The notes beneath the pieces were generated by a model, which had not been told where the DNA came from, did no database searches, and was given only the letters and a program-made list of their open reading frames with translations. Of a DNA stretch of 64,000 nucleotides, positions 34,364 through 60,843 are shown in pieces; position 1 is the stretch's first letter, and every line of letters begins with the position of its first letter. The stretch is from Bacteroidia bacterium (GTDB lineage Bacteria > Bacteroidota > Bacteroidia > Flavobacteriales_D > JAUILH01): positions 1,691 to 65,690 of the forward strand of contig JAUILH010000006.1 of assembly GCA_030433115.1 (NCBI GenBank). The letters are read 5' to 3'. A program made the position numbers and the translations under genes.

Positions 34364-34400
34364 AACTGTACGAAGGGAAATAAAAACCCTACGAAGGGAA
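34364..34400 (+). promoter_or_regulatory. Direct repeat pair (AACnnTACGAAGGGAA x2, 21-bp period): candidate LytTR regulator binding site
   Basis: TACGAAGGGAA occurs at 34369-34379 and again at 34390-34400, each preceded by AAC+2 nt. The pair lies between the LytTR gene stop (34326) and the first operon start (34493). Confidence 0.45.
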
Positions 34401-34492
34401 GATCGCGCAGGATAAAGAACACTCCTCATAATAATTTCAGTGACTGTTAATCTAACGGCATCAAAATCAACTGGAATAAGTCAATAATAGGA

Positions 34493-36136
34493 GTGCTAGG
34501 TCTATCAATCATACTGGTAAATAACAGCTTTAAGCTTGTTGGTCAAAAGAAATCCGAAAAACCAATTCATATTTCTGGTCAAGTTGGTGTTGGTTATGAA
34601 TACGGTCTATTGCCCTTTGTTTCGAACGCTCAACCCCCACAAGGAAATGCTTTTTCTAACGGTGTTTTAGGAGTCTGCTACAAAGGAGTACCATTGACAT
34701 TTAATTATCACTACTCCTCAGTTGGAACGATCAGTGGCTTGAACAACTATGCCAGATTAAGGTTTGATTCTCAGTCATACCGAAAACAACTCAAAGAAAA
34801 GCTTCAGAACTACAAGGCAGAAAAAATACAGCAATTAACCGACCTACAAGGTTACCGCCAAAAAATCCAACAGCAATTACTTTATCTGGATATGTTGGAA
34901 AAAGGAACTGTAAGCAATGCCCAGGCAAAACTACCAGAGTTACCAAGCTTAAACAAGCTGCCGTTTTCCTTGTCCTCAATACCAGGGTTTGAGCTGCCGT
35001 CAGAGGAATTGTCTCTTCCGGAAATAAATACCAACGACCACCTGCCTTTGGACAGTCTTAAGATGCCTTCAATCAAAGACAGTCTGGGTTTCAATGAGGC
35101 CCTTGGAAACAGGAAGACCCAACTGCTTAACATGTTGAGTTTGCTTCAGAAGGCAGAAGGCGCATTGGAGCAGCTGAAGGGAGCCTCTTTGGATAGTTTA
35201 TACCAATCACAAGAAATTCAAAAAGACTTACCAGGTCAGAGTAAACTAAAAAGAATTCTGTCATATACGGACAAGTTAGAGTTAGGGCTCTGTTATCCGG
35301 ATAACAACGTTTTTACAGTTGCCAGAACTCCGGTTCGAGGAGTTAATTTTGAATACAGCAAACACAACAAGTTTTTTGCATTTACCCATGGAAGAACAGT
35401 CAATAACCTGTTCATTGGGAATAACGTTTTGCAAAACAATTTAAATGCCGCAAGGAACCTGTACAACTTTTTCGATTTCAATAATGTTGAATCAGGTAGA
35501 AGAATTACTTCAATAAAATATGGGTGGGGAGCTAAGTCTGGAACTCACTTATATCTTGGGGTTCTGCATGGATATGGTAAAACATCTTATCTGGACTCAA
35601 TAAGTACAACAAAGGAGCATAATCTGGTGGGAGAAGTTGATGCTCAGTGGACCATTAACAAGACCAATCACCTGGCGTTTTCATATGGTCGTTCATACAT
35701 TCAAGCCGACCAAATCAACAATACAGAGCAAAGTGCAATTACAGCCTCTTTTTTTGATTTCACCCATAGGAGCAATGCCGCCTTGCTCAATTATAAGCTA
35801 GAACTTCCGAAAACCAGAACTGAAGTATCCGTGAGTGGGCGACTTGTGGATCCTTTCTTCAAAAGTTTGGGACTTGGTTTCATGCGTTCGGACAACCTAA
35901 GATATGAGGGCAGACTTAAACAAAGAATTGGCAAAACTTTCAAATTGTCTGGTTTTTACAGAAGAGAGCGAGATAACCTTTTGGCAATGTACGACTTCAA
36001 CAATGTATTGATGTCCTATGGCGTTGGAGCAGAGCTCAAAATCAAAAGATCAGGATTCGCAAAAGTAGATTTGCGACCTGTGGTTCATTCAATGGACGCG
36101 GAGTGGATAGTTTGGACTTTCAAAACAATAACCTAA
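34493..36136 (+). CDS. Putative outer-membrane beta-barrel-like protein, part 1
   Basis: GTG start with a weak signal-like N-terminus. Long runs of alternating-polarity strands rich in Y/G/N/S, with a central coiled-coil insert. No known motif. Confidence 0.4.
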   Translation: MLGLSIILVNNSFKLVGQKKSEKPIHISGQVGVGYEYGLLPFVSNAQPPQGNAFSNGVLGVCYKGVPLTFNYHYSSVGTISGLNNYARLRFDSQSYRKQLKEKLQNYKAEKIQQLTDLQGYRQKIQQQLLYLDMLEKGTVSNAQAKLPELPSLNKLPFSLSSIPGFELPSEELSLPEINTNDHLPLDSLKMPSIKDSLGFNEALGNRKTQLLNMLSLLQKAEGALEQLKGASLDSLYQSQEIQKDLPGQSKLKRILSYTDKLELGLCYPDNNVFTVARTPVRGVNFEYSKHNKFFAFTHGRTVNNLFIGNNVLQNNLNAARNLYNFFDFNNVESGRRITSIKYGWGAKSGTHLYLGVLHGYGKTSYLDSISTTKEHNLVGEVDAQWTINKTNHLAFSYGRSYIQADQINNTEQSAITASFFDFTHRSNAALLNYKLELPKTRTEVSVSGRLVDPFFKSLGLGFMRSDNLRYEGRLKQRIGKTFKLSGFYRRERDNLLAMYDFNNVLMSYGVGAELKIKRSGFAKVDLRPVVHSMDAEWIVWTFKTIT

Positions 36137-36615
36137 TTCTTAATGCGGTAGCGAATTACAGAATAAGAATAAAGAAAGACAACTACCTCACGACAACAGC
36201 CATTTATGCTTACTACAAACTGTATAATGGTGAAGAAAATCACACCTATCAAAACTTTAACGTCAATCTGCAAGCCTCAGTTAAAGACAAATGGCTTGTA
36301 AATGCCAATTACAACCAATATACCAGCACAGATACCGCTATTATTCCCCTTACTGGCTTGGCCGACTTGAGTCTTGAATACATTAGAAATAAGTGGTCTC
36401 TTAAAGGAGGAGGAAAGATGGCTGTACCCGGAGAAAATGGAGAACCACTGCAATGGGGATACTTGCTCGGAATCAGAAGTAAACTTTTTAAAAGAACAGA
36501 ATTAGAATTAACCGCAGAACGCCTGGTTATTGGGGATTTTTATAGCTCCGTTTTACTGGATAACGTTCTGGCTTACCCATACAATTTTAAAGCAATTATA
36601 AGCATTCAGATATGA
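36103..36615 (+). CDS. Beta-strand-rich ORF lacking a signal peptide; probably the frameshifted C-terminus of the preceding protein
   Basis: It overlaps the previous ORF by 34 nt in the -1 frame. Strand-like sequence (LILNAVANYRIRI.., TTTAIYAYYKLY.., WLVNANYNQY..). Confidence 0.4.
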   Translation: MDSLDFQNNNLILNAVANYRIRIKKDNYLTTTAIYAYYKLYNGEENHTYQNFNVNLQASVKDKWLVNANYNQYTSTDTAIIPLTGLADLSLEYIRNKWSLKGGGKMAVPGENGEPLQWGYLLGIRSKLFKRTELELTAERLVIGDFYSSVLLDNVLAYPYNFKAIISIQI

Positions 36616-37715
36616 TACGGATCATTAAAAAAACGGCCTTCCTTTTGCTTTTGTCGCTGACAGGAGCTCAATATTCCTCTGGTCAAGTAAGCATAAGTAA
36701 TGCCAACTTATTTCCATTTAATGTTACCAGACAGGCAATGGTTCAAGTGGCTATTATGAGCAATACTTCTCAAGCTCAAATCAGATTGGAAAGTTCGGTA
36801 AGCAATGCTTCAGGAGAAGTGCTTTATAAAGTCTCTACAGCACCATTTCAACTAAATATGGGCTTAAACAACGTATCGCTCTCTAAGGTTCAGATAATAG
36901 AAGAGAGCTACGGTATGTCGAATCAGGCGAGCTATGTTAAAACCAATCACCGGCTCCCCTCCGGGGCATTTAGTTTCTGTGTAGTAGCAATTCCCATAAG
37001 CGGACTGGAGAGTGGAGATGATTATTGTCTGGACATTGATGCAAGTGACAATGAATTTTTATCCCTTGTTTTTCCGAATGATGGAGACACCCTGGACACG
37101 GATCGTCCGGTGCTGAATTGGACGCATAGCGAATCTTTTAATTTGTTAACGGAAGGAGAGTTTTTCAAGTTGATTGTGGTTGAGAAAGAAAAAGACCAAT
37201 CAAATGAGGCTGCAGTAACGACCAACGAACCAGTTTTTCTGAAGAATTATGTTACGCGTCATCAGGTTCCTTATTCCCTGGATGCTAAAAAACTGGAAAA
37301 AGGAAAAACCTATGCCTGGCAAGTTCAAAAAATCTCCAGAGGCTCAATCGTAAACAAAACAGAAGCCTGGGAATTCATAATGCGTCCGGAAGAGGAAATA
37401 AAGGAACATATGTTCACCACATTAAAAAGAAAACTCGACGGAACATTTTACCATGTGTATAACGACAAAATTTACTTCCGGTTTGATGAAAGATACGCTA
37501 CTGGCAACCTAAACTGCCGAATTCTCAATGAGAAGCGTCAGGAAATTAAACCGGAAATGGAAAGTACAGAATCCCATTTAAGTAATCAGAAATCTGCAGG
37601 ATACAATCAATTTATTTTAGATCTGTTGCCCTTCAATCTTGAAAAGGGATTTTACATACTAGAATGCCTTGATGAAAAATCGGAGAAATTTTTACTGAAG
37701 TTTTATGTTGGTTAG
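36612..37715 (+). CDS. Secreted hypothetical protein
   Basis: Signal peptide MIRIIKKTAFLLLLSLTGAQYSSGQ. ATGA overlap with the upstream ORF. Confidence 0.5.
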   Translation: MIRIIKKTAFLLLLSLTGAQYSSGQVSISNANLFPFNVTRQAMVQVAIMSNTSQAQIRLESSVSNASGEVLYKVSTAPFQLNMGLNNVSLSKVQIIEESYGMSNQASYVKTNHRLPSGAFSFCVVAIPISGLESGDDYCLDIDASDNEFLSLVFPNDGDTLDTDRPVLNWTHSESFNLLTEGEFFKLIVVEKEKDQSNEAAVTTNEPVFLKNYVTRHQVPYSLDAKKLEKGKTYAWQVQKISRGSIVNKTEAWEFIMRPEEEIKEHMFTTLKRKLDGTFYHVYNDKIYFRFDERYATGNLNCRILNEKRQEIKPEMESTESHLSNQKSAGYNQFILDLLPFNLEKGFYILECLDEKSEKFLLKFYVG

Positions 37716-38361
37716 AATCAAATACATAACAGGGCTGATCATTTTGTTATCCATTAGTGGGTGCTTTAGACTTTCAGAAAACCAATCTGAACCCACCACT
37801 CGGGAAGAAGTGAATTCGGTAAAAATGAGTCAGAATTCTGTTGAAGGCATGGTGCCTTTGGCAGTTACAAGCCATGAGGTATTGTCGCCTAGAGACTACG
37901 TTTCTTGGGTAAGAAAAGAGGGGAATGGCTTAACCAAAGTGCAGTCGCGGGACCTAATGAGCGTACAATGCACCTATTTGCCACAAGACTATATGGTGTG
38001 CATGGAACTTAAGCAATCGGAAATTGACCAACCAACATATGAAGAAACTCTCAAACATTATTCTGGTTCACAGTATTTCAAATTTCGGGTATCAGGTATA
38101 AAAGAATCAGACAACCTGACATATCTGATGACCCACATGCAGCATGACATTAAGTTGGTGATTAAGCAGGACACAATTCCGTGTATCGAATATATCTGCG
38201 AGCCAATGATTAGCTCAACTGCGCCAATCTCAATCCTGGTGGGATTTGACTTAGAAGAACCCCAGGACATGCAATTAATCATAAAGAATCAGCAGACTCC
38301 AATTGAGTTTAACTGGCTTGAAGAAGACATAAAAAACGCTCCAAAACTTAAAAAAGGATGA
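37705..38361 (+). CDS. Hypothetical lipoprotein
   Basis: Lipobox-like LLSISGCFRL. It overlaps both neighbouring genes. Confidence 0.5.
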   Translation: MLVRIKYITGLIILLSISGCFRLSENQSEPTTREEVNSVKMSQNSVEGMVPLAVTSHEVLSPRDYVSWVRKEGNGLTKVQSRDLMSVQCTYLPQDYMVCMELKQSEIDQPTYEETLKHYSGSQYFKFRVSGIKESDNLTYLMTHMQHDIKLVIKQDTIPCIEYICEPMISSTAPISILVGFDLEEPQDMQLIIKNQQTPIEFNWLEEDIKNAPKLKKG

Positions 38362-41300
38362 GTTACCAAGAGAAACTTAGAATTAGACAAATCATTTTGA
38401 GGATCACATCCTTAAAAATGGCCATGGTCATGATGCTAACCTCCACATTATTCTTGTGGCCCGAAGAAGCTTCTGCATTAACAGGTGGACCAACTCAACC
38501 AGAAGTGAGCAGTTTTTCGCCAGTTGGCACGTCAGATATGGTAGACCCCTTTTCCGGGAATTTTAATTACAACATTCCTCTACTAGATGTTGGTGGCTAC
38601 CCCATCAACCTGGTGTACAATTCCGGCATTTCTATGGACCAGGAAGCGTCATGGGTTGGACTCGGCTGGAATGTCAACGCAGGAGTCATCAACCGAACGG
38701 TAAGAGGGTTGCCAGATGATTTTGACGGAGACACGATTGTGACAACAACAAGCATGAAGCCTATGACGACTTTTGGGCTCACGTATGGAAAGGACTTTGA
38801 GTTTTTTGGAATTACCAAGAATGAAGACAATAAAAAAATAGATACCAGCTTACTTGACCTTAATCTTGGCCTGTCGTTGGGCTTTAACTGGAATAATTAC
38901 ACAGGAATTGGTGCAGAAATAGGCTTGAATCCATCATTCTCAGCTGGAGATAAGAACAAAAACGAATACACAGCTGGATTGGGCTTTAACTCAAGCAGTG
39001 GAGGAGGTTTGAGTATTCAGCCCTCAGCTTCATTTTCAGGGGCAGAGAGGGAGAATAAATCAGAGTCAAAGTTAAAATCTGTAGCAGGTGGATTTCAAAG
39101 TGCATTTAATTCGCGTGAGGGATTAACCGCTTTATCTGTGTCTGGAAATGCGAATATGGCCAGGGCTAAAGAAGGGAAATCACATTTGACCTACAACCTT
39201 GGTGGAACCGCAAGTTTCGATTTTGGCCAACCTACCTACACGCCTTCTGCAAACATTTCAAAAAACAGCTTTGGTTTATCAGCAAGCTTTAAAATTGGAG
39301 CAGAAGTAATTGGAGCCGATATAGGTCAGAGAATAAGCGGTTATTACAATCGGCAATGGATTGCTAAAACTGACAGAATTGCTCAAAACAGGGCCTATGG
39401 TTATTTCAATCTGGAAAATGGACAGAAAGACGATCAGGCGTTATTAGATTTCAATAGAGAAAATGATGGGGCCTATACTTCTGAAACGCCTCTATTACCA
39501 ATGGCTAACTTAACAAATGATGTGTTTTCCGTATCTGGTCAGGGTGTTGGTGGCAGCTTCAGAGGCTTTAGAAATGATGTAGGTCATGTGTTTGACAACA
39601 GCACAGCCACAAACAGTGTTAATGGCAATTTGGGAATAGAGACAGCTACTGGGAATTTAGTTAAAGGCGGGCTTCAGGTTGGAGTTACCTGGTCCAACAC
39701 TCAAACAGGAAAATGGACTAAAAAGAATGACGCTTTGGCTGCAACCACTCACAGACAAAATAAAGCTTACAAAACCTATGAGCACTACCACCTAAAAGAA
39801 GCCAGTGAAAAAAATGTGTCTGCCGATCCCGGTTATATGAGCAGGGTAGGAGGGGTAGACCCCATGCATGTAGATATTTCCAAAGTAGGACTTTTTGGCG
39901 CTCAAGCTAAGAGCAAGTTGGTGAACCACAATGGTACAAGACAAACCATTAGCTCGGCAAGCACTTATAGAAATCAGCGCGAAAAACGGAATCAGTTGAT
40001 GAATGTGCTGCCCAGAGTTAGAGTAAACGAGGGGCACGGACTCAATTTCCTGCCTTCAAATTCCTACGCGAAAACCAACGGTAAAAACCACCATGTGTGT
40101 GAAATCACCAATCTGTCTTCAGATGGCAGTCGTTATGTCTATGGACTTCCCGCATACAATACCAAGAAAAAGGAAGTGACCTTTGCAATTGGAGATAAAA
40201 TTATAGGAACCGGAAGTAACGGTGAATATCCCTATGACCCTGATTGTGCAAACGGTCTTGTGCAGTATGACCCAGGCACCACAGCAACTACAGACAACCC
40301 ATGGGGTGTAGATCAGTATTATAATTCGGTTGAAACACCAGCCTATGCACATGCCTTCATGTTAACAGCCGTGATTAGCCCTGATTATCAGGATGTAGAC
40401 GGCGTTAAAGGACCTAGCGACGGAGACTTGGGAAATTACACCAAGTTTCACTACAAACAAGTAGATGACTATAAGTGGCGTGTGCCATTTCAACAGAATA
40501 GTGCCCACTATAACGAAGGGCTCAGAAGCGATCAATATGATGACAAAGCCAACTACATCTACGGTGAAAAGGAGCTATGGTATCTGGATTCTATTGTGAC
40601 CAAAAACTTCATTGCCATATTCCATACCAATGATAGAGAAGATGGCTGTGGTGTAACAGGAGAGCATGGCGGTCTTGAGACCTCAAATCGAATGCAGAAA
40701 CTGACAAAAATCAGCCTCTATGCCAAACCGGATTACTATGCCAATGGCGTAAACGCCGAGCCGATTAAAGAAGTGCATTTTGAATACAGCTACGAACTGT
40801 GTCCGGACGTTCCCAATAACACGGATGCAGATTATGACCACGACGGGGATCCTGCAACAGCAAAACTCACTAATGAACGCGGAAAATTAACCCTCAAAAA
40901 AGTCTACTTCACTTATAGAGGATCCCAAAGGGGAAAATACAGTGCGTATGATTTTACGTATGGCGGCGACAACAATTATGCTTACAATATGAAGGCCAAT
41001 GACAGGTGGGGAACCTATAAGTACAATCCGGTCACAACGGACTGTGATGTGGTCAATGATTCCTTAAACACATCCGATTTCCCATATACAAATCAATTTG
41101 ATTCAGCCACTCAGGATCTATATGTGTCCGCCTGGTCACTCACGGAAATAGACTTGCCTTCGGGAGGTAAAATCCAGGTAGAGTATGAAAGTGATGACTA
41201 CGCTTATGTCCAATATAAACAAGCCATGCAAATGTTTAAAATTAAGGGACTTCAGAATGGAAGTGGTAGCGCAGTGTTTTCAGGTGTTCAACCCATAAGC

Positions 41301-44060: not shown

Positions 44061-44062
44061 TT

Positions 44063-45022: not shown

Positions 45023-45029
45023 TAGAGAT

Positions 45030-45752: not shown

Positions 45753-45761
45753 CAGAATCTC

Positions 45762-51700: not shown

Positions 51701-54700
51701 CTTGTATGGACTCAATGTGACTGAAGATTTGAATGATGTGGCTTTGTCAAGCACCACAAGCGGATTGATTGTTGGAGATGGTGGCAGGTTAATCAGTCTT
51801 CAAAGTAGCGGTCTGTCTTCTATTTCTCCCACTGTTACCAACGCGAGTTATCCAATTAACTCGGATGATGATGTGCTATCAGTTAAGCGTATTGGAACAA
51901 CCTATTACATCTCGGTATGGCATACACCGGCAAGCGGAGACGGCTTTGGACTCATGTACAAAAGTGCAGACACTACCGGCAACCACTGGATTCCATTAAT
52001 TGATGTGCAAGGACCTGGTTACAACGACATAGATTTTGTAGACGCTAATACCGCATACGCTGTTGGAGACCAGGGGAGCGTTTACCAAACCATAGATGCG
52101 GGCGACAATTGGTATGTAGTTGACAACTATTTAACCGATAATTTGTCAAAAGTCTTTTTTATGGATGCCAACAACGGAATTGTATTGGCAGACAGTTTGG
52201 CTTCTTACGGCAAGCTAATGGCAACCAACGATGGTGGCAACACCTGGTACAGATTAAACACTTATGGCCAGTATTACAGCAATTTCCATGTGTATTATGA
52301 GGATGGTTCTTATGGTGCCAAATTGGCTTTGGTTGGTCCTGATGCTGCAGTGGCCAGACTCATCATGCAGAACAATACAGGCTTTGGTGTGATTCCTCTC
52401 GATGATATTTCTGCCTCAGTTGATTTTACAGGTGTTTGGGCAAAAGAATCGAACAACAAACTATTCTTAATGGCGGCAGGAAATGCAGCGAACATTTATT
52501 TCACCAGAGATGCAGAAGCTTCTGTTACGCCATGGTCATCAGACAACGTAGGGGTGTCAAATATTGTTGAGATCAAAGCTGATTCAGTAAGTGCCGTATT
52601 TACCGGAACAGCTATGGATAACAACGGAAAATTGTATGGTTTTACGCTGGATGCAGATCCCGGCACTACCAGTAATACATTTACCTGGGGCGCCTTTACA
52701 ACACCAACAGCGGGTAACCAGGAGTTTTCTGCCCTCGAGAACGATCCCGATAATAGCAGATTGCTTGCCTACAATCAACAAGACAATAAACTGTATACCA
52801 TCTCTCCTTCTGGTGCCAGTTTGGTAACAAGTGCTTCAGACAATGGTGTGGTAACGGCTGGTCTGGCGTCATTGGATCAATATACCGCCATTGCTGTTGA
52901 TGAAAACGGAAGCGGGCTGGTAAGTGGTCCAACAGGTTATTTAACACACGCTTCTGAGTCGGCTGGAAGCTATACCTGGTCAGAGCAAAAAACAAACATT
53001 CGTCCACAAGCCATTAACGACATGGCACTGGTTGAAAATGATCAGTTATGGGCCGTTGGAGAACGCGCAACTCTGTTAAGGCATGATACCACATCAAATG
53101 CTCTTTATCTCCAGCTTGCGGAAACTAAAGACAACTGGAATGCCATAGCCTACTCCGGTGTGGACTCAAGTATCGTAGTAGGAGATAGTGGGGCCATTCT
53201 AAGAGTTTACCGTTCGGGAGGCAATTTTGCTTTCACAAACATTGCTTCAAACACAACTTCAGATTTATATGATGTGGTAGTGGATGCCAGTACTTACACG
53301 GCTTATGTTGCCGGAGAAGGGAACCAAACCAGGATGACCTCTAATAACCTCAATACTGCTACGCCGAGCTTCAGTGTGATGTTTGGAACAGCCTTAAACA
53401 ATACCGGGCTCTCTTTATTTGTTGGAGCGAATAGCCGCATCAATTTTGGAGCCGGGCAGTCTGTAGTGCCCACATGGCAGGTATTCCCACACGCCTTAAC
53501 CGATCTGCATTTTTCAAATGCCCAAAACGGCTATGTAATTGGCGATCATTATACCGTGAGATATACAAACGATGGCGGACAAACCTGGCAATCTGTAATT
53601 CCTGACAATGGCTTTGGGTCCGGAGTACCAGAGCTCAATACCGTGTGGAATACATCTGCGGCAACCGCTTATGTAGGTGGAAACGACAATTATATCGCTA
53701 CAACAAACGGTACAGAATCTACCGAATCAGGCATTACCTTGCCGGGTGGTTATGGTGCCGGAATTGACTTCAATGACATCACCTTTGTTGACAGTGATAC
53801 TGCCTTCATGGTAGGGGGAGATACTGATGGACAAGCCTTAATATCTGTGGATGGAGGTGCTAATTGGACCAGCGTTTCGGGAGCTATTGGAGAAGTCCTC
53901 CACACGGTACATGGTTTCACCAGAAACAACACATTTATTGCAGGTGGAGAGAATGGTCAGGTAGCCTATTTCGATGGAACCAGCATGCTTGAATCGGGCT
54001 ACCAACCAGTTGCCAGCTTCACAGGAACCATCAACGACATTTATTTCCATGATGACATTACAGGTTATTTGGTGGGAGATAATGGAGAAATTCACCGATC
54101 AATAAACGGAAGCCTCAACACCAATGGACTATTAAGTAGTATTAATTGGCTTGAAAAAGGGACAAATGATGGCGGCTTGCTCAACCAAACCACGGAAGGT
54201 GACAAGAATATTAATGCCATTGATTTTGCCGAGCGATTTAACGGGTTTATTGGAGGAAGCTATGCCAGCGGTTCACCAGACGTGTATGCCAGATTACTTA
54301 ACGATGAAAGCAATGAATATTCTACCTATTTCTGGTATGATAAACTGGGCAGAATAGTGGTGTCTCAAAACAGCAGACAGTTTAACGCAGACACCGTTCG
54401 CTACAGTTATACCAGATACGATGAGCTTGGAAGAGTTGTGGAGGCAGGTGAAAAATTAGAAAACACCACAGACACTGTCTTCACAAGTATTTTTGGGGAA
54501 GTCATCAACGGACATTACAACCCCAATGTCATCAACGATACCTTGTTGTCTGCCTGGATTGAAGCCCCATCCGGCAGAAGACAGGAAGTGACCCATAGTT
54601 ACTATGATGTTGCCATTAATGCTCTATCGGACACCTTGCCATCAGGGTTTGCTCAGAACAACTTGAGAAAGAGAATTGCCACTGTGATGTACGAAAAAGT

Positions 54701-57700
54701 GCTGGACAACGACACCACTACCTACGACCACGCGACACACTACAGTTACGACATTCATGGCAACGTGGAGACCTTGATTCAAGACAACAGAAACTCCGGC
54801 ATTGCGGCTCAACGTTTTAAACGCATGGATTATGAGTACGATTTGATTTCGGGTAATGTCCATAAAGTGGCGTATCAGGCCGACTCTGCGGATGCCTGGT
54901 ACCACAAGTACGACTATGATGCTGATAACCGCATTTTACATGCTTATACCTCAATAGACGACATCAACTACGACATGGACGCCAAGTACATTTACTACGA
55001 CCATGGTCCGCTTGCCAGAGTTGAACTGGGTGAAAATAATGTGCAGGGAATGGATTATGCCTACACACTTCAAGGTTGGTTAAAAGCAGTGAATAGCGAT
55101 AAATTAAATCCGCTGAACGACATAGGGCATGATGGTCATTTGCTAGACACCACCAATGTGAATGGAAGCTTTGCCGTAGACGCCATGGGTTACTCCTTGA
55201 GCTATTACCAGGGAGACTATGCCAGCATAGATACGGCAGTTTGGCAGGACACGGCTACCAGATTCTTATCGGCAACCAACCATGCCGCATACATGCACGA
55301 CAGAAAAGACCTTTACAATGGCAATATTGGGAGCATGATTACCACCATTGCTTATGAAACCAACATCAATACACCATTGGAGTTTGGTATGGATGTGAGG
55401 CCACAGGCTACTGCATACAGGTACGATCAATTGAACCGATTATCATCGGCAAAAGCTTACAACAACTTCTGTTCAACCAATAACAAATGGATAGAAACAC
55501 ACGCCTACAAAGGGTTATACGAAAACCGGTTTACCTATGAAGCCAATGGAAACATCCTCACACAACTGAGACGTGACTACAGAACTAAGACCATCGATAG
55601 CCTGAACTACGAATACGCCAGAAATGCCGAAGGGCAACTCGTTCAAAACAGATTATACCATGTGGATGATGCTGTGTTGCCAGGCGACTTTTCAGACGAC
55701 ATAGATGACATGGGCACTTTTGAGGACAATGTGAACCTGATTAACAATGGTAGCAACAACTACCGTTACGACGACATAGGCCAGCTCATACAAGACAGTC
55801 AGGAGGGCATAGACACCATTATTTGGCGCGTAGATGGAAAAATTAAAGCCATTTACAGAACAGCATCTGCTGGGAAGTCAGACAAGAAAAGTTTGACCTT
55901 TGATTATGATGCCATGGGCAACCGCATTGCCAAACATGTGTACTCAACCGACACGGCAGACGGCGGACCAGATAGTTGGATGAAATCCGTATACTACAGC
56001 AGAGATGCGCAAGGCAATGTAATGAGTGTTTACGAATACAAAGAAGATCCGCTCACCGCAGCAGTCAACTACACACTCACGGAAAGAGATATCTACGGCT
56101 CATCTAGAGTAGGGCTTCACAAAGAAAGCATTGAAATGATTGGAGCCACAACAGATGCAACAAACGCCTACCACAGAATAGGTGACAAAAACTATGAACT
56201 GAGCAACCACCTGGGCAATGTCCTGGCTACGGTGAGTGATAAGAAGATCAACACCTATCAATTGAACATTTTGGAACGCTTCAATACCACAGCAGACTCT
56301 ACTGAATTTGACCAATGGGAGCTTCTTGGAAGCGCCACTAAGAATATTGACAATGGGTATTTGGAAGTGATTCCTGGCGCTAAGGGAGATGGTGTTAAAC
56401 GTTTCCTAAAGACCAGAAAAGGGAAAGCCTACGAGTTTTCTATGGATCATGGTTTCCCTAATTCTACTGACTTGACATTGATTCAGATTTATGATATGGT
56501 ATCAGGAGATACGATTCACGCAATCAGACGAATTAATAGTCCCAGTTCTAAGGCATATTGTGCAGACTTTATCGCGCTTAGCGACAGTACAGAGATCTAC
56601 ATAACTGCCAACACCAGTGCGTTTACTTTCAATTTCGACAACTTCTATTTGAGACGACGAAACCTCAATGATTTAAGATACCATATAGACAGGTTTGAAG
56701 ACAGCACAGATATTTGCAAATGGTCGTATGGCGGAACGGTGGCACAAACTCTGGATACAGGATGGCTTAAAGTTGAAGTAGACAATCAATATGAGGCCAC
56801 AGGCAGATGGTTTACAACCGTTCCCGGACATACTTACAACATTGACTTTGATTTGGATTTGGGAACCTGCACAGAAGTGGAGGTAAGGCCTGAAGATTTC
56901 ACCAACTTCCCCCATACTAATTTAACAGGCTATTCATATACCACTGGTGGGCATAAAAGCTTCTGGTTTGTTGCAACAGGTCGTACTCATAGACTCCGCT
57001 TTCATAAACTTGGCAACCATGGCAGCACCACGCATTATTTCTTAGACAATGTTGAAATTAGAGATAATAATTATTACCCATACTGCGAAGGCGTCTTTGC
57101 CACAGAGTTTACAGAGTCAGACCCGGATGATTTGGCAGACACCGTGAACTGGACGGCCGTTAACGGAGCGAGCTTTGAGTTGGAGGATGATAAGTTGCAG
57201 GTGAGTACAGATGCTATTGATGAAGGAATAGAGCGCGTTTTTGTCGTGAACAGGGGGCGCCCACATAAATTGAAGCTATTCTTTGCATCAGACTTTGCCT
57301 CTGCATCTATGTTAGTGCGTATTTATGATGCCAATACTGGAACATACCTGGCTCGCGGATCTTATACCAATGGTGTTCCGGAGAGGCCTATTTCTTTTTA
57401 TCCTGCTGCAGATTCAATCAGAATAGAAATTGTAGCCACGAACGCAAGCTCTTTTGATTGGACAGTAGACAACTTTGAACTTGTAGAACGAGACTATATG
57501 CCTATAGTGGCCGACTTTGAACCCAATCCAAAATCAGCTGAAGAGCTTACCGACTGGCATGTGAATTTGGGCTATTTAACAGCCACCCCAGATGAGGGAA
57601 GAATTAAAGTTGAGACTGAATACACCAATCAAACCTTCGCCAGAATTTTTTGGTGTAAACCATACCACACCTACCGTGTAAAGTTTAATATGGATAAGGG

Positions 57701-60479
57701 CAATACAGCCGGTGTAAGAGCAAGAATTACCACCTACACACCAAGCTTGTCGCCAAGCACACTGCACAACGTAACTTATACCGTAGATGGCGATCATGAA
57801 TTCACGTTTTCACCACCGAGTACTATTTCCAGAATGGTTCAACTGCTATTCTATAAGAGCGGAGGAAATGGCACCATGCAACACTACTATTTGGATGACA
57901 TCATCATAGAAGACATCACCGACACCCTGTTTAGTCCAGACCACAACGACATCATTGCAAGCAGTTACCCAAGCATCCACAGTGCTGTAGATTACAGCCC
58001 CTTTGGTGTGCAGTTGGATGGCAGAACCTATAATTTAGTCGCGGATGCCGTAGAGGCCATAGAACCAGACTATCGTTGGGACTTGATGGATGCAGATTTA
58101 TCAGAAGACAATGGTTCTGGTTATGATATGACTGCCAATGGTGGAGCTTTGGATACTTTGGATAGATGTGGTAATTCTAAAAGCGCCTACTACTTGGATG
58201 GTGTGGACGATTATTTGGAAATAACAGATCAGGTGGCATTTACCCCAGGAGCAGATGACTTTAGTGTGAGTATTTGGGTGAAGAAGTTGAGTGCTACGGT
58301 GAGTTATGCTGGCAATGTAGCTGTGAGTAAGTGGAACACCGGAGGCACACCGGGCACCAATGAATGGAGCTTGGGTATGAGTAGTGGCGCAAGCGGAGCA
58401 GATCCTGGCGGATTCTCGATCGAATCTGGAAGTACAAGTTACAGAGCCGAAGGTTTATCCCCAGTGAATCTGAATGAATGGTACCATCTGGTTGGCGTTA
58501 GAGATGGCGATTATATCAAGTACTTTATAAATGGTGAACTACAAAGTCAGACTTATGTTGGTACGGCCAGCGTTAATGACATTTCTGGTATGGACATGTA
58601 CTTTGGAAAACGCCAAAACAATGGCAATGGGCACATGGTATTGGACGATTTTGCTTATTTTAGAAGAGCCTTAAGCCAAAGTGAAGTGAAAAGTATGTTC
58701 GACCATAGCAGTTGTAATTTTGAGGGGGGACCAGCGGGTTGCAGCTATGTATATACTGGGTATGATGAGGTAATTACAGAGACAGTTACTAACCATTTAG
58801 ATGTATCAGGGGTAGATGATCATGTGAGAGCGGGAGGAGGTAATAGAAACATTACCAATGAAGTGACCCTTGAAGCCTGGATAAGAGCGGACTATGTAGT
58901 TTCTGCTGCCGGGACTTTCTTTAATAAGTATGGTGACGTTGGTGGCGGCAACTACAGAGGTTACCACCTCTTCTACAATGGTGGCCGGGTAAGATTTGCT
59001 GGTGTCAATGGCTCAGATGGTTACAAATCTACCGCATACTCAGACACCATAGCCGATGGTTTATGGCACCATGTGGTTGGTGTAGTAGATAGCAACGACA
59101 CCTGGAGTTTGTATTTAGATGGTGTATTAGTAGACTACACAGATTACACCCTGACAACAGGAGACCTTACAAATCCAGGGGTACTTCAGATAGGCGATGG
59201 GACCTTCTCGAATGATGATTTTAATGGAGAGATGAAACACGCCTCTATATGGAATAGAGCCAGAACAGCCCAGGAAGTGTTAAATGACTATACATCTGTT
59301 CATCCAACAGGAACGGAGGCTAATTTAATGGGTTATTTTCCATTGGATGAAGGCACGGGCACAACAGCCTATGATTTGTCTTCGACTGGAGCAGACGGGA
59401 CATTCTCAGGAAGTCCAACCTGGACAACCGATACTTTGGTTGATACAACGTATGTTCCTAATGACTCGGTGAAGGTGAGCGGTGCTGTGACTTATAGATA
59501 CGGATTCCAGGGACAGGAAAAAGACAACGAACTCAAAGGTGAGGGATTATCTATCAACTACAAGTATAGAATGCATGATCCTAGGCTGGGGAGGTTCTTT
59601 GCGGTGGATCCTTTGTTTAGAGAATATCCAAACCTGTCTAGTTATCATTTTGTTAGCAATGACCCTATAAGTGGTGTTGAAGTTGATGGCAGATGGTGGA
59701 GAAAACATAGGAAGACAGCCACAGGTAGAAATGCAGCAACTATAAATAGTTTGTACGGACCATTTAAAATGGTTATTAATGATCCAGCTGAAATAGAGGG
59801 ACTAGATAATCTGTCAATGATACCTTATGCCGGTTTATTGAGTACTGCCAATAAGTATAAGGCAATTTATGACGACCCTTCCTTAGAGATGTCTAAATTT
59901 GATTATCTCAGTGTGGTTGGAGGAGCTTATTTTAAAGGTACAAGGAAGATAATAAAGTCTCTTACAAAACTTAGTAAGGCCTCAAGAACTGCTCTTGGTA
60001 TTAGTGAAAAGACTTTTGAAGTTATGGGATATGTGTCGAGTGTGGATGAGCAATATCGAGAAATTGCCTATGAAACTTTTACTGCGAGGACTCTTGCCGA
60101 TTACGAAGAAGTGATTGATGGGAAAAGCTATAAAATAGGCTATGTCAATGAGGACAAAAGTGGTTATGTTGATGGGTTTACAATTAATAAAGACTACTAT
60201 GACGCAAAGTTTTCTGAGCAACACACAAAATTCTCAAAAGAAATAAATGGAATTACTGATGAAGAATTTGAAAAGAAACTTGATGAAGAATATCCTTATA
60301 GGCTTGTTTACATGGATAGGCAAGACTATATAAACAGAAAATCAAAAGAAGCTGTTGAAAAACACTTTTATTCTCGTCTGGAGCTAACCAAATGCTCTCT
60401 TAAAGAAAATGTGGATAAAGCAATAATTAAATATCTTAAGTCAAAGACAAACTCAAATAATTCAACTGAAAATGAATAG
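45762..60479 (+). CDS. 4905-aa Sec-signal RHS/YD-repeat polymorphic toxin (DUF6443-like N-region, BNR propeller insert, CBM-like and LamG inserts, variable C-terminal toxin)
   Basis: Signal peptide MRLKYFITALILTGSSAVALS. DUF6443-like ISYFDGSLRNRQSV..YDHQGRPAVNILPVP. Many YD repeats (YYYDQAGNLVKTV, YTRYDELGRVVEAGE, YDYDADNRILHAY, FDYDAMGNRIAKHVY ...). Core motifs NHLGNV, YSPFGV and YRYGFQGQEKDNE..YKYRMHDPRLGRFFAVDP..NDPISGVEVDG. Confidence 0.9.
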   Translation: MRLKYFITALILTGSSAVALSNDISVHQRIAASNGNAVEIGSAEAEKTVEVLPKTGAFKDINQKAFLSFGVDHNYEGYLEEDMNVRVVVHVTPYDKNDVAQTAFDQSLEIEYKPFSFISYQDKDQYIFEEAYKFEFRIDSVFINGVSDTLLPANMYVDGDITIDRTYEFASSVNTVITPDDSVIYLNCDTLADELEIRWNTLLGAEEYQLEWVFVNDYTATENAYSATGKTYNFRNNSTRISTAETFYRIPLVFDHGYVLYRVRAIGRDTADLDKRIFGTWSYDQDGLITDAAVIKYHNTVPHEKEKNWQLTTTFAEEGKKKEVISYFDGSLRNRQSVTRINSDNNTIVGETIYDHQGRPAVNILPVPVQTPTCDSSGNEEISALQFYPNFNLNDSAQAYSRHDFDLDDSASWSVSAGSLNDSTGASNYYSPSNPNKTAHQAYVPQANGYPFTQVEYTPDNTGRIKRQSGVGENFKLGSGKETQYFYGKPMQIKLNRLFGSEVGYASHYKKNLVIDPNGQISVSYLDQEGRVVATSLAGEVPDNLIALTSEENASVDLTADLFEKDPNGNSLTNAIGPDGKSIVYNQELLVSTASDYEFIYSIDSDTLYDSCLVDTICFHCVYDLTFMITDACGDTIPSDTIVTDTTIGYFTTDSLGTIQFNTECQTPSGVSYSDTLLVSLTPGNYTISKILTLREDAIDYYVEAFLDSANNECVKTLYDFQQDFLALVDTSSCYVDCDSCESQLGTRDDFVSQGLGTALEYDIMLEECQAPCQDIDPCDVARQMMLVDMMPAGQYGTYYDAQGNIDVSSYNLSIYSSNNMLSATNALWSNPYLEKNGNTYDYFIDELGDSAKVILQSDGSGGYVPSVTSALLVHTNGNGDFYTYPDNLANVTDFIDLFQESWAQSLLYYHPEYCYYKTCLEYHEEDSDENTSNTFDNLLLNTETFDAAINAGIIKSNYAALSNPDDRLEDLFTVSTSHAYDPFVTSGNFGAYASALETKYDTYVSGSPSYSMIEMAAATVRCGTVSGLGGSCTDFGKDIAGYTAAENDSIRDLEWQTFKAMYQGEKRTQQNGYAHEDAIANKCYNGCIGQVPFHIHANGFYGSPGNGWLNNAFYDNDQPCSVSNYHLYKTKAKRFPDTEDIPGYNSNASNQTNYNTASSESFMQTGVCPTATNLEQFLTELSAHDTLTDNHQLIGAYGTWAGLYYSIYGFDNPAPQVYWDTLSSDLTLDVTLLDSTTSDTLCKMGLDATGVLTDWDDVQAFTNINPTGFDGDYYNFTVIVEHDSSGTTLYDTIPGYTCMNIECCLFETPCSANQLAADLQNLMSALASDDELQSISFAYGLDNDYANTESLVINNHVSGSHSTLKWDYNSSDDIYEIRSANDTLCLEITGKTPSSFSNYTDIWYFDNFLSATEHYFTVEGYDSTGTLLVTLEGQAFVKTATDTIPVSLGDCDLKSIQCATVAHGIREDLENLLHESLLANPFSSNINFYNSIYITDNFSDAFGFNAAESSSSEDTITVDSVFYDSLHIALTPSGEGRTDTLCNLYLSISSDTAQHLQFEDLTNLGPLVATGTPGFDGNFYDFYMLADFSYMIGETIYTASDTVWGSSACLSLQNCDLCDSVVSPPDTIIYPNEDAVLMTQSQSKDCESDHGTYLQAITTYNTYVTNNSLNWPEADTTYTQSEMTFLNYCGCVDRFDKYVSSLTDGFGEDPDSADIVPYLDLAAHCPKPPCQPYIPVTDTIENIYVDYVNPCVEDLMNTAMLNAEIAYQNYLDSMASIAADQYQTHCIGAVENLNASFSDKEYHFTLYYYDQAGNLVKTVPPEGVQLLDDLTADGDSLSQLIANDRFYGTHSIYTSHRLATTYTYNSLNQLVKQSLPDHNKMDVFDMSLSSGLDNGMTIESVQFVNSARGYLAGWKIEGNDTLGLAYKSDDGGKTWQRLRNTVAEDLNKVNSFNDVAYAVGNRGVLLKSSDAGMSWNMIDLYGLNVTEDLNDVALSSTTSGLIVGDGGRLISLQSSGLSSISPTVTNASYPINSDDDVLSVKRIGTTYYISVWHTPASGDGFGLMYKSADTTGNHWIPLIDVQGPGYNDIDFVDANTAYAVGDQGSVYQTIDAGDNWYVVDNYLTDNLSKVFFMDANNGIVLADSLASYGKLMATNDGGNTWYRLNTYGQYYSNFHVYYEDGSYGAKLALVGPDAAVARLIMQNNTGFGVIPLDDISASVDFTGVWAKESNNKLFLMAAGNAANIYFTRDAEASVTPWSSDNVGVSNIVEIKADSVSAVFTGTAMDNNGKLYGFTLDADPGTTSNTFTWGAFTTPTAGNQEFSALENDPDNSRLLAYNQQDNKLYTISPSGASLVTSASDNGVVTAGLASLDQYTAIAVDENGSGLVSGPTGYLTHASESAGSYTWSEQKTNIRPQAINDMALVENDQLWAVGERATLLRHDTTSNALYLQLAETKDNWNAIAYSGVDSSIVVGDSGAILRVYRSGGNFAFTNIASNTTSDLYDVVVDASTYTAYVAGEGNQTRMTSNNLNTATPSFSVMFGTALNNTGLSLFVGANSRINFGAGQSVVPTWQVFPHALTDLHFSNAQNGYVIGDHYTVRYTNDGGQTWQSVIPDNGFGSGVPELNTVWNTSAATAYVGGNDNYIATTNGTESTESGITLPGGYGAGIDFNDITFVDSDTAFMVGGDTDGQALISVDGGANWTSVSGAIGEVLHTVHGFTRNNTFIAGGENGQVAYFDGTSMLESGYQPVASFTGTINDIYFHDDITGYLVGDNGEIHRSINGSLNTNGLLSSINWLEKGTNDGGLLNQTTEGDKNINAIDFAERFNGFIGGSYASGSPDVYARLLNDESNEYSTYFWYDKLGRIVVSQNSRQFNADTVRYSYTRYDELGRVVEAGEKLENTTDTVFTSIFGEVINGHYNPNVINDTLLSAWIEAPSGRRQEVTHSYYDVAINALSDTLPSGFAQNNLRKRIATVMYEKVLDNDTTTYDHATHYSYDIHGNVETLIQDNRNSGIAAQRFKRMDYEYDLISGNVHKVAYQADSADAWYHKYDYDADNRILHAYTSIDDINYDMDAKYIYYDHGPLARVELGENNVQGMDYAYTLQGWLKAVNSDKLNPLNDIGHDGHLLDTTNVNGSFAVDAMGYSLSYYQGDYASIDTAVWQDTATRFLSATNHAAYMHDRKDLYNGNIGSMITTIAYETNINTPLEFGMDVRPQATAYRYDQLNRLSSAKAYNNFCSTNNKWIETHAYKGLYENRFTYEANGNILTQLRRDYRTKTIDSLNYEYARNAEGQLVQNRLYHVDDAVLPGDFSDDIDDMGTFEDNVNLINNGSNNYRYDDIGQLIQDSQEGIDTIIWRVDGKIKAIYRTASAGKSDKKSLTFDYDAMGNRIAKHVYSTDTADGGPDSWMKSVYYSRDAQGNVMSVYEYKEDPLTAAVNYTLTERDIYGSSRVGLHKESIEMIGATTDATNAYHRIGDKNYELSNHLGNVLATVSDKKINTYQLNILERFNTTADSTEFDQWELLGSATKNIDNGYLEVIPGAKGDGVKRFLKTRKGKAYEFSMDHGFPNSTDLTLIQIYDMVSGDTIHAIRRINSPSSKAYCADFIALSDSTEIYITANTSAFTFNFDNFYLRRRNLNDLRYHIDRFEDSTDICKWSYGGTVAQTLDTGWLKVEVDNQYEATGRWFTTVPGHTYNIDFDLDLGTCTEVEVRPEDFTNFPHTNLTGYSYTTGGHKSFWFVATGRTHRLRFHKLGNHGSTTHYFLDNVEIRDNNYYPYCEGVFATEFTESDPDDLADTVNWTAVNGASFELEDDKLQVSTDAIDEGIERVFVVNRGRPHKLKLFFASDFASASMLVRIYDANTGTYLARGSYTNGVPERPISFYPAADSIRIEIVATNASSFDWTVDNFELVERDYMPIVADFEPNPKSAEELTDWHVNLGYLTATPDEGRIKVETEYTNQTFARIFWCKPYHTYRVKFNMDKGNTAGVRARITTYTPSLSPSTLHNVTYTVDGDHEFTFSPPSTISRMVQLLFYKSGGNGTMQHYYLDDIIIEDITDTLFSPDHNDIIASSYPSIHSAVDYSPFGVQLDGRTYNLVADAVEAIEPDYRWDLMDADLSEDNGSGYDMTANGGALDTLDRCGNSKSAYYLDGVDDYLEITDQVAFTPGADDFSVSIWVKKLSATVSYAGNVAVSKWNTGGTPGTNEWSLGMSSGASGADPGGFSIESGSTSYRAEGLSPVNLNEWYHLVGVRDGDYIKYFINGELQSQTYVGTASVNDISGMDMYFGKRQNNGNGHMVLDDFAYFRRALSQSEVKSMFDHSSCNFEGGPAGCSYVYTGYDEVITETVTNHLDVSGVDDHVRAGGGNRNITNEVTLEAWIRADYVVSAAGTFFNKYGDVGGGNYRGYHLFYNGGRVRFAGVNGSDGYKSTAYSDTIADGLWHHVVGVVDSNDTWSLYLDGVLVDYTDYTLTTGDLTNPGVLQIGDGTFSNDDFNGEMKHASIWNRARTAQEVLNDYTSVHPTGTEANLMGYFPLDEGTGTTAYDLSSTGADGTFSGSPTWTTDTLVDTTYVPNDSVKVSGAVTYRYGFQGQEKDNELKGEGLSINYKYRMHDPRLGRFFAVDPLFREYPNLSSYHFVSNDPISGVEVDGRWWRKHRKTATGRNAATINSLYGPFKMVINDPAEIEGLDNLSMIPYAGLLSTANKYKAIYDDPSLEMSKFDYLSVVGGAYFKGTRKIIKSLTKLSKASRTALGISEKTFEVMGYVSSVDEQYREIAYETFTARTLADYEEVIDGKSYKIGYVNEDKSGYVDGFTINKDYYDAKFSEQHTKFSKEINGITDEEFEKKLDEEYPYRLVYMDRQDYINRKSKEAVEKHFYSRLELTKCSLKENVDKAIIKYLKSKTNSNNSTENE
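49280..50620 (+). other. Three tandem, highly diverged ~150-aa modules inside the N-terminal region of the giant protein
   Basis: Each module has a leading helix (NLEQFLTEL / LAADLQNLMSAL / IREDLENLLHESL). Each then has a DTLC(K/L/N) strand and a G(F)DG(D/N)(Y/F)Y(N/D)F or HYFTVEGYD strand. Confidence 0.5.
51540..54330 (+). other. BNR/Asp-box (Ycf48/sialidase-like) beta-propeller region inserted between YD-repeat blocks
   Basis: Six Asp-box motifs: SDDGGKTW, SSDAGMSW, TIDAGDNW, TNDGGNTW, TNDGGQTW and SVDGGANW. YD repeats lie immediately before (51170-51400) and after (from 54331, FWYDKLGRIV). Confidence 0.7.
56270..57920 (+). other. Four tandem diverged jelly-roll (CBM/galactose-binding-like) modules inserted in the RHS core
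   Basis: Each of the four ~135-145-aa units ends in a DNF(Y/E)L / LDN(V)EI / LDDIII strand and opens with an F(E/N)..(D/T)...W motif. They sit between NHLGNV (56205) and YSPFG (57993). Confidence 0.6.
58060..59300 (+). other. Two LamG/concanavalin-A-like (Laminin_G_3-type) domains between the PFG motif and the terminal RHS core motif
   Basis: The patterns FSVSIWVK..W.HLVGVRDG..KYFINGEL..RALSQSEV and LEAWIRAD..WHHVVGVVDSNDTWSLYLDG..IWNRARTAQEV are typical of LamG_3. Confidence 0.7.
58665..59630 (+). repeat. Dispersed repeat, copy A (3' LamG-RHS-core region of the giant gene) homologous to the orphan cassette
   Basis: About 95% nt identity to 61811-62006 over the first ~190 nt. The centre is divergent. 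Identity is about 85% again over 59310-59630 versus 62470-62770. Confidence 0.85.
59691..60476 (+). other. Variable C-terminal toxin domain of the giant RHS protein (family not recognised)
   Basis: It follows the conserved ..DPRLGRFFAVDP..NDPISGVEVDG boundary, where RHS toxins are normally autoproteolysed. About 262 aa, K/E-rich, with no recognisable catalytic motif. Confidence 0.6.
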
Positions 60480-60843
60480 AATAGTCAAGATAGTAATACT
60501 AATTACTTTTTGTTCTTGTTCAAATGATCAATCTGAAAATGGAGGACAATCGCAAGAAAGGAATCGTAAGGAGATTGCCGTTAAACTATATCAGAACAGG
60601 ATAGTTGGAAGTCATGGTATGAATCAAGATAGAATTGTTTTTGAAAAGAATAATGTAATGATAGACTGTGTGAAAATTCACAGCAAAGATTCATTGACTC
60701 TTCTCAGCAAGTTCATTATAGACGATTCCCTAAGCATTTCAGCAGAATCTGTGATTAGGGATTTTGGTGTGGAATGGATTGTTCAAGATATGCGATACTT
60801 TGATACTGTGAGTTTATCAAAGACTATCATAGTAAGGGACTAG
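60472..60843 (+). CDS. Putative cognate immunity protein (lipoprotein)
   Basis: The ATG overlaps the toxin stop by 8 nt. Lipoprotein-type signal MNRIVKIVILITFCSCSNDQ in a 123-aa protein. Confidence 0.6.
   Translation: MNRIVKIVILITFCSCSNDQSENGGQSQERNRKEIAVKLYQNRIVGSHGMNQDRIVFEKNNVMIDCVKIHSKDSLTLLSKFIIDDSLSISAESVIRDFGVEWIVQDMRYFDTVSLSKTIIVRD

Follow-up and report, generated by a model that had tools for sequence, protein, structure and literature searches.

How a giant toxin that carries a Sec signal and an RHS shell leaves a diderm cell is an open question. A concrete candidate for the machinery is found in the stretch of DNA analysed here, a window of 64,000 nucleotides from a Bacteroidia bacterium (assembly GCA_030433115.1, contig JAUILH010000006.1, positions 1,691 to 65,690 of the forward strand), in which an operon encodes an RHS protein, H, behind a series of envelope proteins, AB to G, and ahead of a small gene, I. 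The operon represents a gene cluster, widespread in Bacteroidota and so far unannotated, that pairs a Sec-exported RHS giant with envelope proteins. From the company that these genes keep and the folds predicted for them, we lean modestly towards reading the cluster as a dedicated two-step apparatus for the surface export or display of the giant, and we hold each single role assignment within it with less confidence than the whole.

The operon consists of nine closely packed plus-strand open reading frames (ORFs), running from 34493 to 60843, which amount to eight genes since the first two ORFs are a single frameshifted gene (Table 1). From first to last, the junctions are overlaps of 34, 4, 11 and 4 nt, gaps of 2, 7 and 9 nt, and a final overlap of 8 nt. 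The overlaps at 36612 and 38358 are of the ATGA type, and the ATG at 60472 lies within the stop region of the giant ORF for H. A preliminary description of this DNA had listed these ORFs and junctions and proposed a single transcription unit; the coordinates and junction sequences agree with it, and the packing is that of one operon. It had also made out a beta-barrel-like first product of about 700 residues once two ORFs are joined, a secreted 367-residue protein, a 218-residue lipoprotein, a LolA-like secreted protein and a 4,905-residue RHS protein with a Sec signal, all of which are borne out below. Its interpretation as a whole is partly supported: the operon and the Sec-dependent RHS giant stand, while the SpvB/TcB-like partner that it saw in protein E does not.

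Relatives of E, the core protein of the cluster, are numerous. A collection clustered at 90% identity contains more than 5,055 full-length relatives, all from Bacteroidota and all named "hypothetical"; at 50% identity the family comprises 5,098 clusters, 2,706 of them at E ≤ 1e-30. Relatives are found in at least 593 species-representative genomes; in the search of the genome collection, a single E sequence as query gave no relatives and an alignment did. Among the carriers are cultured strains of Flavobacterium, Flavivirga and Agriterribacter and members of the Chitinophagales, Cytophagales and Sphingobacteriales, and the nearest relatives among the matches listed are Flavobacteriales metagenome-assembled genomes (Fluviicola, Crocinitomicaceae, Vicingaceae).

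An iterative hidden Markov model search over the fetched loci revealed a conserved gene order: AB (660-875 aa), C, an OmpH/Skp-like gene of about 175 aa, D, E, F, LolA3 (gene G of the window) and H. The arrangement is not a product of chance, because the same order recurs in about 140 independent loci. The OmpH/Skp-like gene sits between C and D in most clusters (L002 8786-9331, L014 8766-9290, L092 276-821) and is missing from this window and from its closest relative. Counted from E, the downstream genes F, H and G are found in 54, 53 and 49 of 55 loci that have at least 9 kb of downstream sequence, and the upstream genes D, C and AB in 50, 42 and 23 of 60 loci that have at least 5 kb upstream. 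In 18 of 80 loci a single fused ORF encodes both E and F, which speaks for a physical interaction between the two proteins. The count was also made from the other end of the cluster, with the best 80 of 561 metagenome relatives of the H N-terminus: the LolA3 gene lies immediately upstream in 68 of 69 loci, and F and E are present in 57 of 57 and 35 of 35. The accessory genes are therefore in conserved synteny with RHS giants, whether the counting starts from E or from H, and such synteny is what the preliminary description had asked for. The searchable literature, which does not extend to subscription-only papers, contains no paper that describes the cluster and none that mentions DUF6443, and the Flavobacterium johnsoniae genes adjoining lolA3 appear there in LolA papers only. 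Some genomes hold two full copies of the cluster on one contig (L011, L013; P0011, P0022).

Table 1. Features of the operon and its surroundings, in window coordinates (aa, residues of protein H; CBM, carbohydrate-binding module; T9SS, type IX secretion system).
Feature	Coordinates	Strand	Basis or remarks
Gene 1, AB: large outer-membrane beta-barrel with coiled-coil hairpin insert	34493..36615 (ORFs 34493-36136 and 36103-36615)	+	Model of a homologue, Foldseek
Gene 2, C: 367 aa, signal peptide	36612..37715	+	No family; ~240-2000 aa elsewhere
Gene 3, D: 218-aa lipoprotein	37705..38361	+	Lipobox LSISG|C
Gene 4, E: 1,900-aa core protein	38358..44060	+	Signal peptide, N-terminal motif, barrel-like part, beta-rich body, Cys unit
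Gene 5, F: 319 aa, secreted, Cys-rich, CBM/jelly-roll-like, YD-like tail	44063..45022	+	Signal peptide; weak matches
Gene 6, G: 240-aa LolA3-family periplasmic LolA-fold protein	45030..45752	+	NCBIfam NF053579
Gene 7, H: 4,905-aa RHS/YD polymorphic toxin	45762..60479	+	DUF6443, Rhs_assc_core, matches to solved Rhs structures
H, DUF6443	aa 311-406 (nt 46692-46979)	+	35 bits, cut-off 27.8
H, Cys-rich region	aa ~610-1790	+	~40 cysteines
H, YD-like repeats	aa ~1800-1870	+	
H, BNR/Ycf48/Sortilin-type propellers	aa ~1890-2800 (nt ~51429-54161)	+	PSII_BNR, Sortilin-Vps10 and BNR matches
H, RHS block	aa ~2856-3500 (nt ~54327-56261)	+	
H, four CBM-like repeats	aa 3505-4075	+	~140 aa each, by eye
H, two Laminin_G_3 domains	aa ~4146-4268 and 4350-4506	+	
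H, Rhs core	aa 4575-4643 (nt 59484-59690)	+	TIGR03696, 41.4 bits, cut-off 32.5
H, orphan toxin tip	aa 4644-4905 (nt 59691-60476)	+	262 aa
Gene 8, I: small lipoprotein-like ORF, 123 aa	60472..60843	+	Overlaps the end of H
IS200-like Y1 transposase fragment	60938-61285		Upstream of the orphan cassette
162-nt x2 tandem duplication	61245-61569		96% identity; upstream of the orphan cassette
Orphan toxin-tip cassette	61742..63985	+	Downstream of I
PAS histidine kinase	31852-33420		Pfam HisKA/HATPase_c/PAS; upstream of the LytTR regulator
LytTR-type response regulator	33478..34326	+	Pfam Response_reg and LytTR; immediately 5' of the operon
Two imperfect 19-nt direct repeats (…TACGAAGGGAA)	34361..34400	.	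21-bp spacing; 3' of the LytTR gene, 5' of the operon
PKD/Ig protein with a genuine T9SS C-terminal sorting domain	15156-16979	-	Unrelated to the operon

By its domain content, H is a Sec-dependent RHS/YD polymorphic toxin, with both an RHS block and an Rhs core in place. A signal peptide is present in the window copy and in the H homologues examined, and the many cysteines ahead of the propellers are consistent with an extracytoplasmic location. A profile of residues ~2840-3560 matches the solved Rhs structures 7q97 (E = 3.6e-9) and Tse5 8cp6 (E = 2.9e-7); the Pfam model RHS_repeat on its own gives a weak match (E = 0.059). PDB searches with the family of the H N-terminus returned nothing meaningful, and domain scans detected no NHL propeller in the protein. 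By eye, YD-like repeats can be seen on both sides of the BNR-type propellers (51159-54330, aa ~1800-2860). The propellers look like an insertion into the YD region, comparable to the propeller in TcB.

The gene that follows, I, starts with the lipobox-like sequence MNRIVKIVILITFCSC. It belongs to no family and has no homologue in 160 related loci, which is what one would expect if it is a polymorphic immunity gene. Its product is a candidate immunity protein; of the lipoprotein immunity gene named in the preliminary description, the lipobox-like N-terminus is confirmed, and the immunity role is proposed from the position of the gene only. Further downstream, an ORF at 61742-63004 is 72% identical over 345 aa to residues ~4300-4643 of H and diverges from it exactly past the Rhs-core boundary. 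Its continuation, at 62962-63621, is a C-terminal piece unlike that of H, and an Imm33-like immunity gene (63641-63985) comes next. Such an arrangement, an orphan tip with an Imm33-like gene, is typical of an Rhs locus. The tip of the cassette is rich in Cys and His and shows an HNH-like pattern by eye; it has no Pfam match.

At the other end of the operon, AB is split by a frameshift near 36095-36103, a site that is no homopolymer, into ORFs of 547 and 170 aa. The two are one frameshifted gene, because the homologues, to which they align end to end, are always single ORFs of 660-930 aa; in the closest genome, GCA_041255245.1, AB is intact at 699 aa. The homologues have signal peptides and end in W or F, the frameshifted window copy in Ile, and two homologues contain PF13505. 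An AlphaFold2 model of one homologue (P0123, pLDDT 80.7) has about 26 strands and a coiled-coil hairpin insert. Against the PDB, Foldseek finds 346 matches to this model at E ≤ 1e-3, and all of the matches listed are outer-membrane beta-barrel proteins, with TM-scores that are low (0.2-0.4). Among the homologues, AB thus combines a barrel model, a signal peptide and a C-terminal aromatic residue, the features of an outer-membrane beta-barrel. The fold matches are to generic large barrels and not specifically to Omp85. The highest TM-score is reached by the FimD usher (0.37-0.40), likewise a large barrel of about 24-26 strands, but AB has no usher Pfam family, plug or PapD-like chaperone, and TonB-dependent transporters score equally by E-value. 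As far as the model goes, the likeness to FimD is a generic large-barrel similarity, and AB is predicted to be a new large outer-membrane barrel outside the known barrel families. Because the gene is frameshifted, the local copy of the cluster may be impaired, unless the frameshift is a sequencing or assembly error.

Protein C carries a signal peptide and matches no Pfam or NCBIfam family. D has a lipobox with no acidic export signal behind the lipobox Cys, and is probably an outer-membrane lipoprotein on the periplasmic side.

Protein F is cysteine-rich in its N-terminal part. Two domain matches, CBM_4_9 (E = 0.0048) and a phage spike-fibre domain (E = 6.5e-5), stay below threshold, and the C-terminal ~50 residues bear a weak likeness to one or two of the YD repeats known from Rhs proteins and teneurins (E = 0.1-0.7). 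The jelly-roll protein with a YD tail of the preliminary description is thus recognizable in matches that are weak throughout. Across genomes the conserved part of F is the YD-like tail alone, and the body ranges from 180 to 2,900 aa, with PKD or beta-helix (NosD) modules in some.

G is assigned to LolA3 by its score of 143.8 bits on the NCBIfam equivalog model NF053579 (cut-off 83); the alignment pairs its residues 1-233 with positions 1-231 of the 232-position profile. The G copies of clusters in Flavobacterium score 222-226 bits on the same model, and PDB searches with G gave nothing meaningful. LolA3 (Fjoh_0605 of F. johnsoniae, PGN0947 of Porphyromonas gingivalis) has been reported not to bind LolB; its function was left open and its gene context not discussed (PMC11885536, PMC13103446). 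In the present cluster, a member of this family is the fixed neighbour of an RHS giant.

E begins with a signal peptide and a conserved motif of ~80 aa that is weakly SpvB/DUF6531-like and nearly invariant across the family. An AlphaFold2 model of residues 1-1200, built from a 40-sequence alignment (pLDDT 70, pTM 0.69), shows about 14 strands of 10-18 residues at aa ~120-452, followed by a beta-rich region with a pLDDT of 80-88. The strands alternate strictly in hydrophobicity and are rich in Gly, Ser, Asn and Thr. Foldseek finds nothing for this model at E ≤ 1e-3 (best E = 0.012), and a search of a viral library was empty too. The weak matches are nearly all outer-membrane barrels: KdgM (probability 0.96, TM-score 0.40), autotransporter beta-domains, LpxR and CymA. 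The N-terminal third of E thus resembles an outer-membrane beta-barrel, at moderate model confidence. The remainder is a beta-rich region of ~1,450 aa with an unmatched fold, and the final ~90 residues form a Cys-containing unit with the pattern GG.PY…W…TD..GC, which by eye we take to be SprB-repeat-like.

Known secretion systems were compared with this set of proteins. Scans of the operon and of the larger ORFs of the window found no PAAR, VgrG, Hcp, TssBC or TcA signature, in agreement with the preliminary description, and no T9SS C-terminal sorting domain (CTD) apart from the one in ORF 15156-16979. Searches with Pfam, NCBIfam, Foldseek and PDB sequences or profiles match none of the accessory genes to a component of a characterised secretion system, and no two-partner-secretion or usher family was detected in the operon products. 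The earlier proposal of an undescribed export apparatus for a TcB/TcC-like cocoon toxin therefore keeps its first half, since the accessory proteins match no known system, and loses the second as far as E is concerned, since a TcB-like nature of E is not supported and the cocoon features all reside in H. Among known secretion systems no relative of the accessory set can be detected; the set appears to be new, and its function is inferred.

The Rhs effectors of type VI secretion systems (T6SSs), such as Pseudomonas protegens RhsA (7q97) and Tse5 (8cp6), share with H a homologous RHS block and Rhs core, a polymorphic tip, candidate immunity genes and orphan cassettes. In contrast to them, H has a cleavable Sec signal, a Cys-rich region and lectin-like modules and reaches three to four times their size, and the genes linked to it encode outer-membrane and periplasmic proteins, not parts of a T6SS. 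A reading of H as a T6SS effector was rejected: the Sec signal is there, and a PAAR, VgrG or DUF4150 adaptor and an Eag chaperone are not. H was likewise rejected as T9SS cargo, as there is no CTD in H, E or F and the C-terminus of H is the variable toxin. For H this negative is meaningful, because the same scan detects the CTD in ORF 15156-16979.

In its proposed logic the system parallels type V secretion, in which transport via Sec is followed by passage through a dedicated outer-membrane barrel. CdiB-CdiA also offers a parallel to H: the surface toxin is a giant, it combines receptor-binding modules with a polymorphic toxin at its C-terminus, and it comes with an immunity gene, for which I is the candidate here. 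The inverse autotransporters (intimin/invasin) have the order proposed for E, an N-terminal barrel followed by a large C-terminal body. Unlike in type V systems, Pfam finds no Omp85/POTRA, two-partner-secretion or intimin beta-domain family among AB, E and H. The cargo, moreover, has an RHS shell in place of a beta-helical filament, and two different barrel or barrel-like proteins occur together with LolA-like and Skp-like chaperones. Teneurin-like proteins (TLPs), which consist of an FN-plug, an NHL propeller and a YD shell, have been described from six phyla, Bacteroidota not included, with no delivery machinery evident for them (Raoelijaona et al. 2026, PMC13018210). H resembles them in that it depends on Sec, is presumably directed to the surface and combines a propeller and a YD shell with a polymorphic toxin, probably encapsulated, and a candidate immunity gene; it differs in that its propellers are of the BNR/Ycf48 type, with no NHL, and in having a conserved accessory gene set. 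Another comparison is offered by the TANFOR toxins, which are large, Sec-dependent and restricted to Bacteroidetes; their export route is not demonstrated, and they have been proposed as T9SS cargo (Jana et al. 2020, PMC7073777). H, too, is a large Sec-dependent polymorphic toxin in this group, but TANFOR toxins have their own N-terminal domain and no RHS shell, and their neighbourhoods are rich in T9SS substrates and not in E, F and LolA3.

Taken as an export and display apparatus, the cluster might work as follows. The products, except for the C-terminal tip of the toxin, bear signal peptides or lipoboxes and would cross the inner membrane via Sec. In the periplasm, LolA3 would handle the giant toxin, joined in most genomes by the Skp/OmpH-like chaperone, whose gene is absent here. 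Crossing of or mounting in the outer membrane and anchoring at the surface would fall to the AB barrel, the E barrel or both: AB as a pore of ~26 strands, the size of an usher or TonB-dependent transporter, and E as a ~14-strand barrel-like N-terminal domain that would anchor its ~1,450-aa beta-rich body, with the D lipoprotein and protein C as presumed accessories. F would be a variable lectin- or adhesin-like module that docks on E through its conserved YD-like tail. It would probably form the distal, target-binding end, so that the body of E and the tip made of F would be a surface structure that positions the toxin. H may then bind the target by its own modules, the BNR propellers, CBM-like repeats and Laminin-G domains, and its RHS shell and Rhs core would enclose the variable C-terminal toxin and subsequently release it into the neighbouring cell. 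Lipoprotein I would protect the producer, and the orphan tip/Imm33 cassette would permit toxin switching by recombination.

Several points weigh against this export and display reading. AB is detected in 23 of 60 loci only, so it is dispensable, encoded elsewhere or too divergent to be detected. The barrel in E is modelled with a pLDDT of ~55-80 and a best Foldseek E-value of 0.012, which is moderate confidence only, and the toxin tip (aa ~4645-4905) yielded no homologue when searched and belongs to no Pfam family. Deletion of lolA3 in F. johnsoniae produced no gliding or T9SS phenotype (PMC11885536), a result that fits a specialised role of LolA3 without demonstrating one. The functional steps, finally, are all drawn from gene context and predicted folds.

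Other readings of the locus have their own points of support. The ABC toxins, in which TcB and TcC form a cocoon (TcdB2-TccC3, YenBC), suggest a division of labour in which E would be the TcB/SpvB-like subunit, forming such a cocoon with H, and the other genes would replace TcA. Points in its support are the RHS/YD shell of H, which has an Rhs core at its end and would enclose the variable C-terminal toxin, propellers between the YD-like repeats and the main RHS block, a YD-like tail in F, and a short motif in E that resembles the start of SpvB/TcB. This is the motif that the preliminary description called SpvB/TcaC-type. It exists, but with Pfam SpvB (PF03534) the isolated E N-terminus scores 15.4 bits (E = 0.011), short of the cut-off of 22, over a stretch of ~65 residues that covers profile positions 4-70 of 287; the match is seen in one of six family N-termini, with none in the five homologues, and whole E gives no match to SpvB at E ≤ 0.1. 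DUF6531 matches the E N-terminus at E = 0.13. Beyond the motif, profile and fold searches find no sign of TcB in E. There is no Pfam or NCBIfam match, including none to TcdB_toxin_midN/midC or RHS_repeat, and neither the single sequence nor a 21-sequence profile finds anything in the PDB, which holds TcB/TcC structures. By hhalign, the E family aligns to the RHS block of H with a probability of 0.4%, and no TcB, TcC, Rhs protein or teneurin is among the Foldseek matches of E aa 1-1200. The YD-flanked propellers, the shell and the core are all inside H, a single Sec-exported protein, with propellers of the BNR/Sortilin type in place of TcdB mid domains. A TcA-type translocator is lacking among the scanned operon ORFs and larger window ORFs as well as in the conserved order of the ~140 loci. 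E as a TcB-like subunit is thus highly improbable.

It is unlikely, though less so, that E and F are a separate surface adhesin or envelope structure, merely co-regulated with H, and that the giant exits by T9SS in trans, in vesicles or by lysis. The window does encode a T9SS substrate, the Sec-dependent TANFOR toxins have been proposed as T9SS cargo (PMC7073777), AB is missing at many loci, and F bears modules of the adhesin type (PKD, CBM, beta-helix). However, H lacks a T9SS CTD and has the variable toxin at its C-terminus, the cluster encodes its own LolA-fold protein and, in most cases, a Skp-like chaperone, and the linkage of G, F and E to the H N-terminus is near-absolute across distant orders, which co-regulation alone is not expected to yield. 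Decidedly doubtful is the view that the local copy is a decaying, non-functional remnant, for which the frameshift in AB, at a site that is no homopolymer and with an intact 699-aa gene in the closest relative, might be cited together with the IS200-like fragment and the duplication downstream. The other seven genes are intact, including ORFs of 5.7 kb and 14.7 kb, a single-base assembly error is possible, and AB is absent from many otherwise complete clusters. Finally, E, F and H might constitute a surface or released toxin against eukaryotic grazers or hosts, or serve teneurin-like adhesion or kin recognition, instead of interbacterial killing. The propellers, YD shell and C-terminal toxin of H parallel teneurins and TLPs, which have been linked to social behaviour (PMC13018210), and both H and F have lectin-like modules. 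Against this stands the usual signature of antibacterial self-protection, here a small, apparently cognate lipoprotein gene next to the toxin and, downstream, an orphan tip accompanied by an Imm33-like gene, and we consider such a role distinctly improbable in place of killing, although the two are not mutually exclusive.

The export and display reading can be put in a stronger form: a new, phylum-wide outer-membrane secretion or display system of Bacteroidota for Sec-exported RHS giants, independent of T6SS and T9SS, in which E would be the anchored core, AB the pore, F the exchangeable tip and LolA3 the chaperone. This version is held tentatively, at slightly less than an even chance. The candidate machine is conserved in at least 593 species, and its core family, with more than 5,000 clusters at 50% identity, is without annotation. 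The cluster also gives a testable role to LolA3, a paralogue that has recently been characterised structurally and genetically, and it is carried by cultured, genetically tractable Flavobacterium species. If true, the proposal would give Bacteroidota, a dominant phylum in soils, waters and guts, a further pathway of secretion or contact-dependent antagonism. It would also supply the delivery machinery reported missing for teneurin-like shell toxins, give LolA3 a function and bear on the origin of teneurin-type architectures.

Across the window the GC content stays even (0.40-0.46), and the genes that flank the operon, gltX-like, mnmG, ybeY and truA, are ordinary chromosomal ones; a horizontally acquired island was rejected on these grounds, the GC being uniform and the flanking genes of the housekeeping kind. 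Elsewhere, in locus L001 (1-4000), Phage_sheath_1C and Pvc16_N genes of a contractile injection system occupy the opposite strand 6-10 kb upstream of the cluster. A link to a prophage or contractile injection system was rejected, since sheath and Pvc16 genes occur near the cluster in that one locus only. The PKD/Ig protein far upstream of the operon carries a T9SS CTD, and the organism therefore has a T9SS.

Immediately upstream of the operon, the LytTR-type response regulator is a candidate local regulator. It is not kept at other loci, and in the closest genome a GerE-type regulator takes its position. The PAS kinase preceding it reads as two abutting ORFs, 31852-32340 and 32341-33420, which may be one stop-interrupted gene or two separate proteins. 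A repeat search found the copies AATAACTGTACGAAGGGAA and AAAAACCCTACGAAGGGAA between the regulator gene and the operon start. Their spacing fits what we take to be the known geometry of LytTR sites, and by this geometry the repeats are a candidate LytTR binding site.

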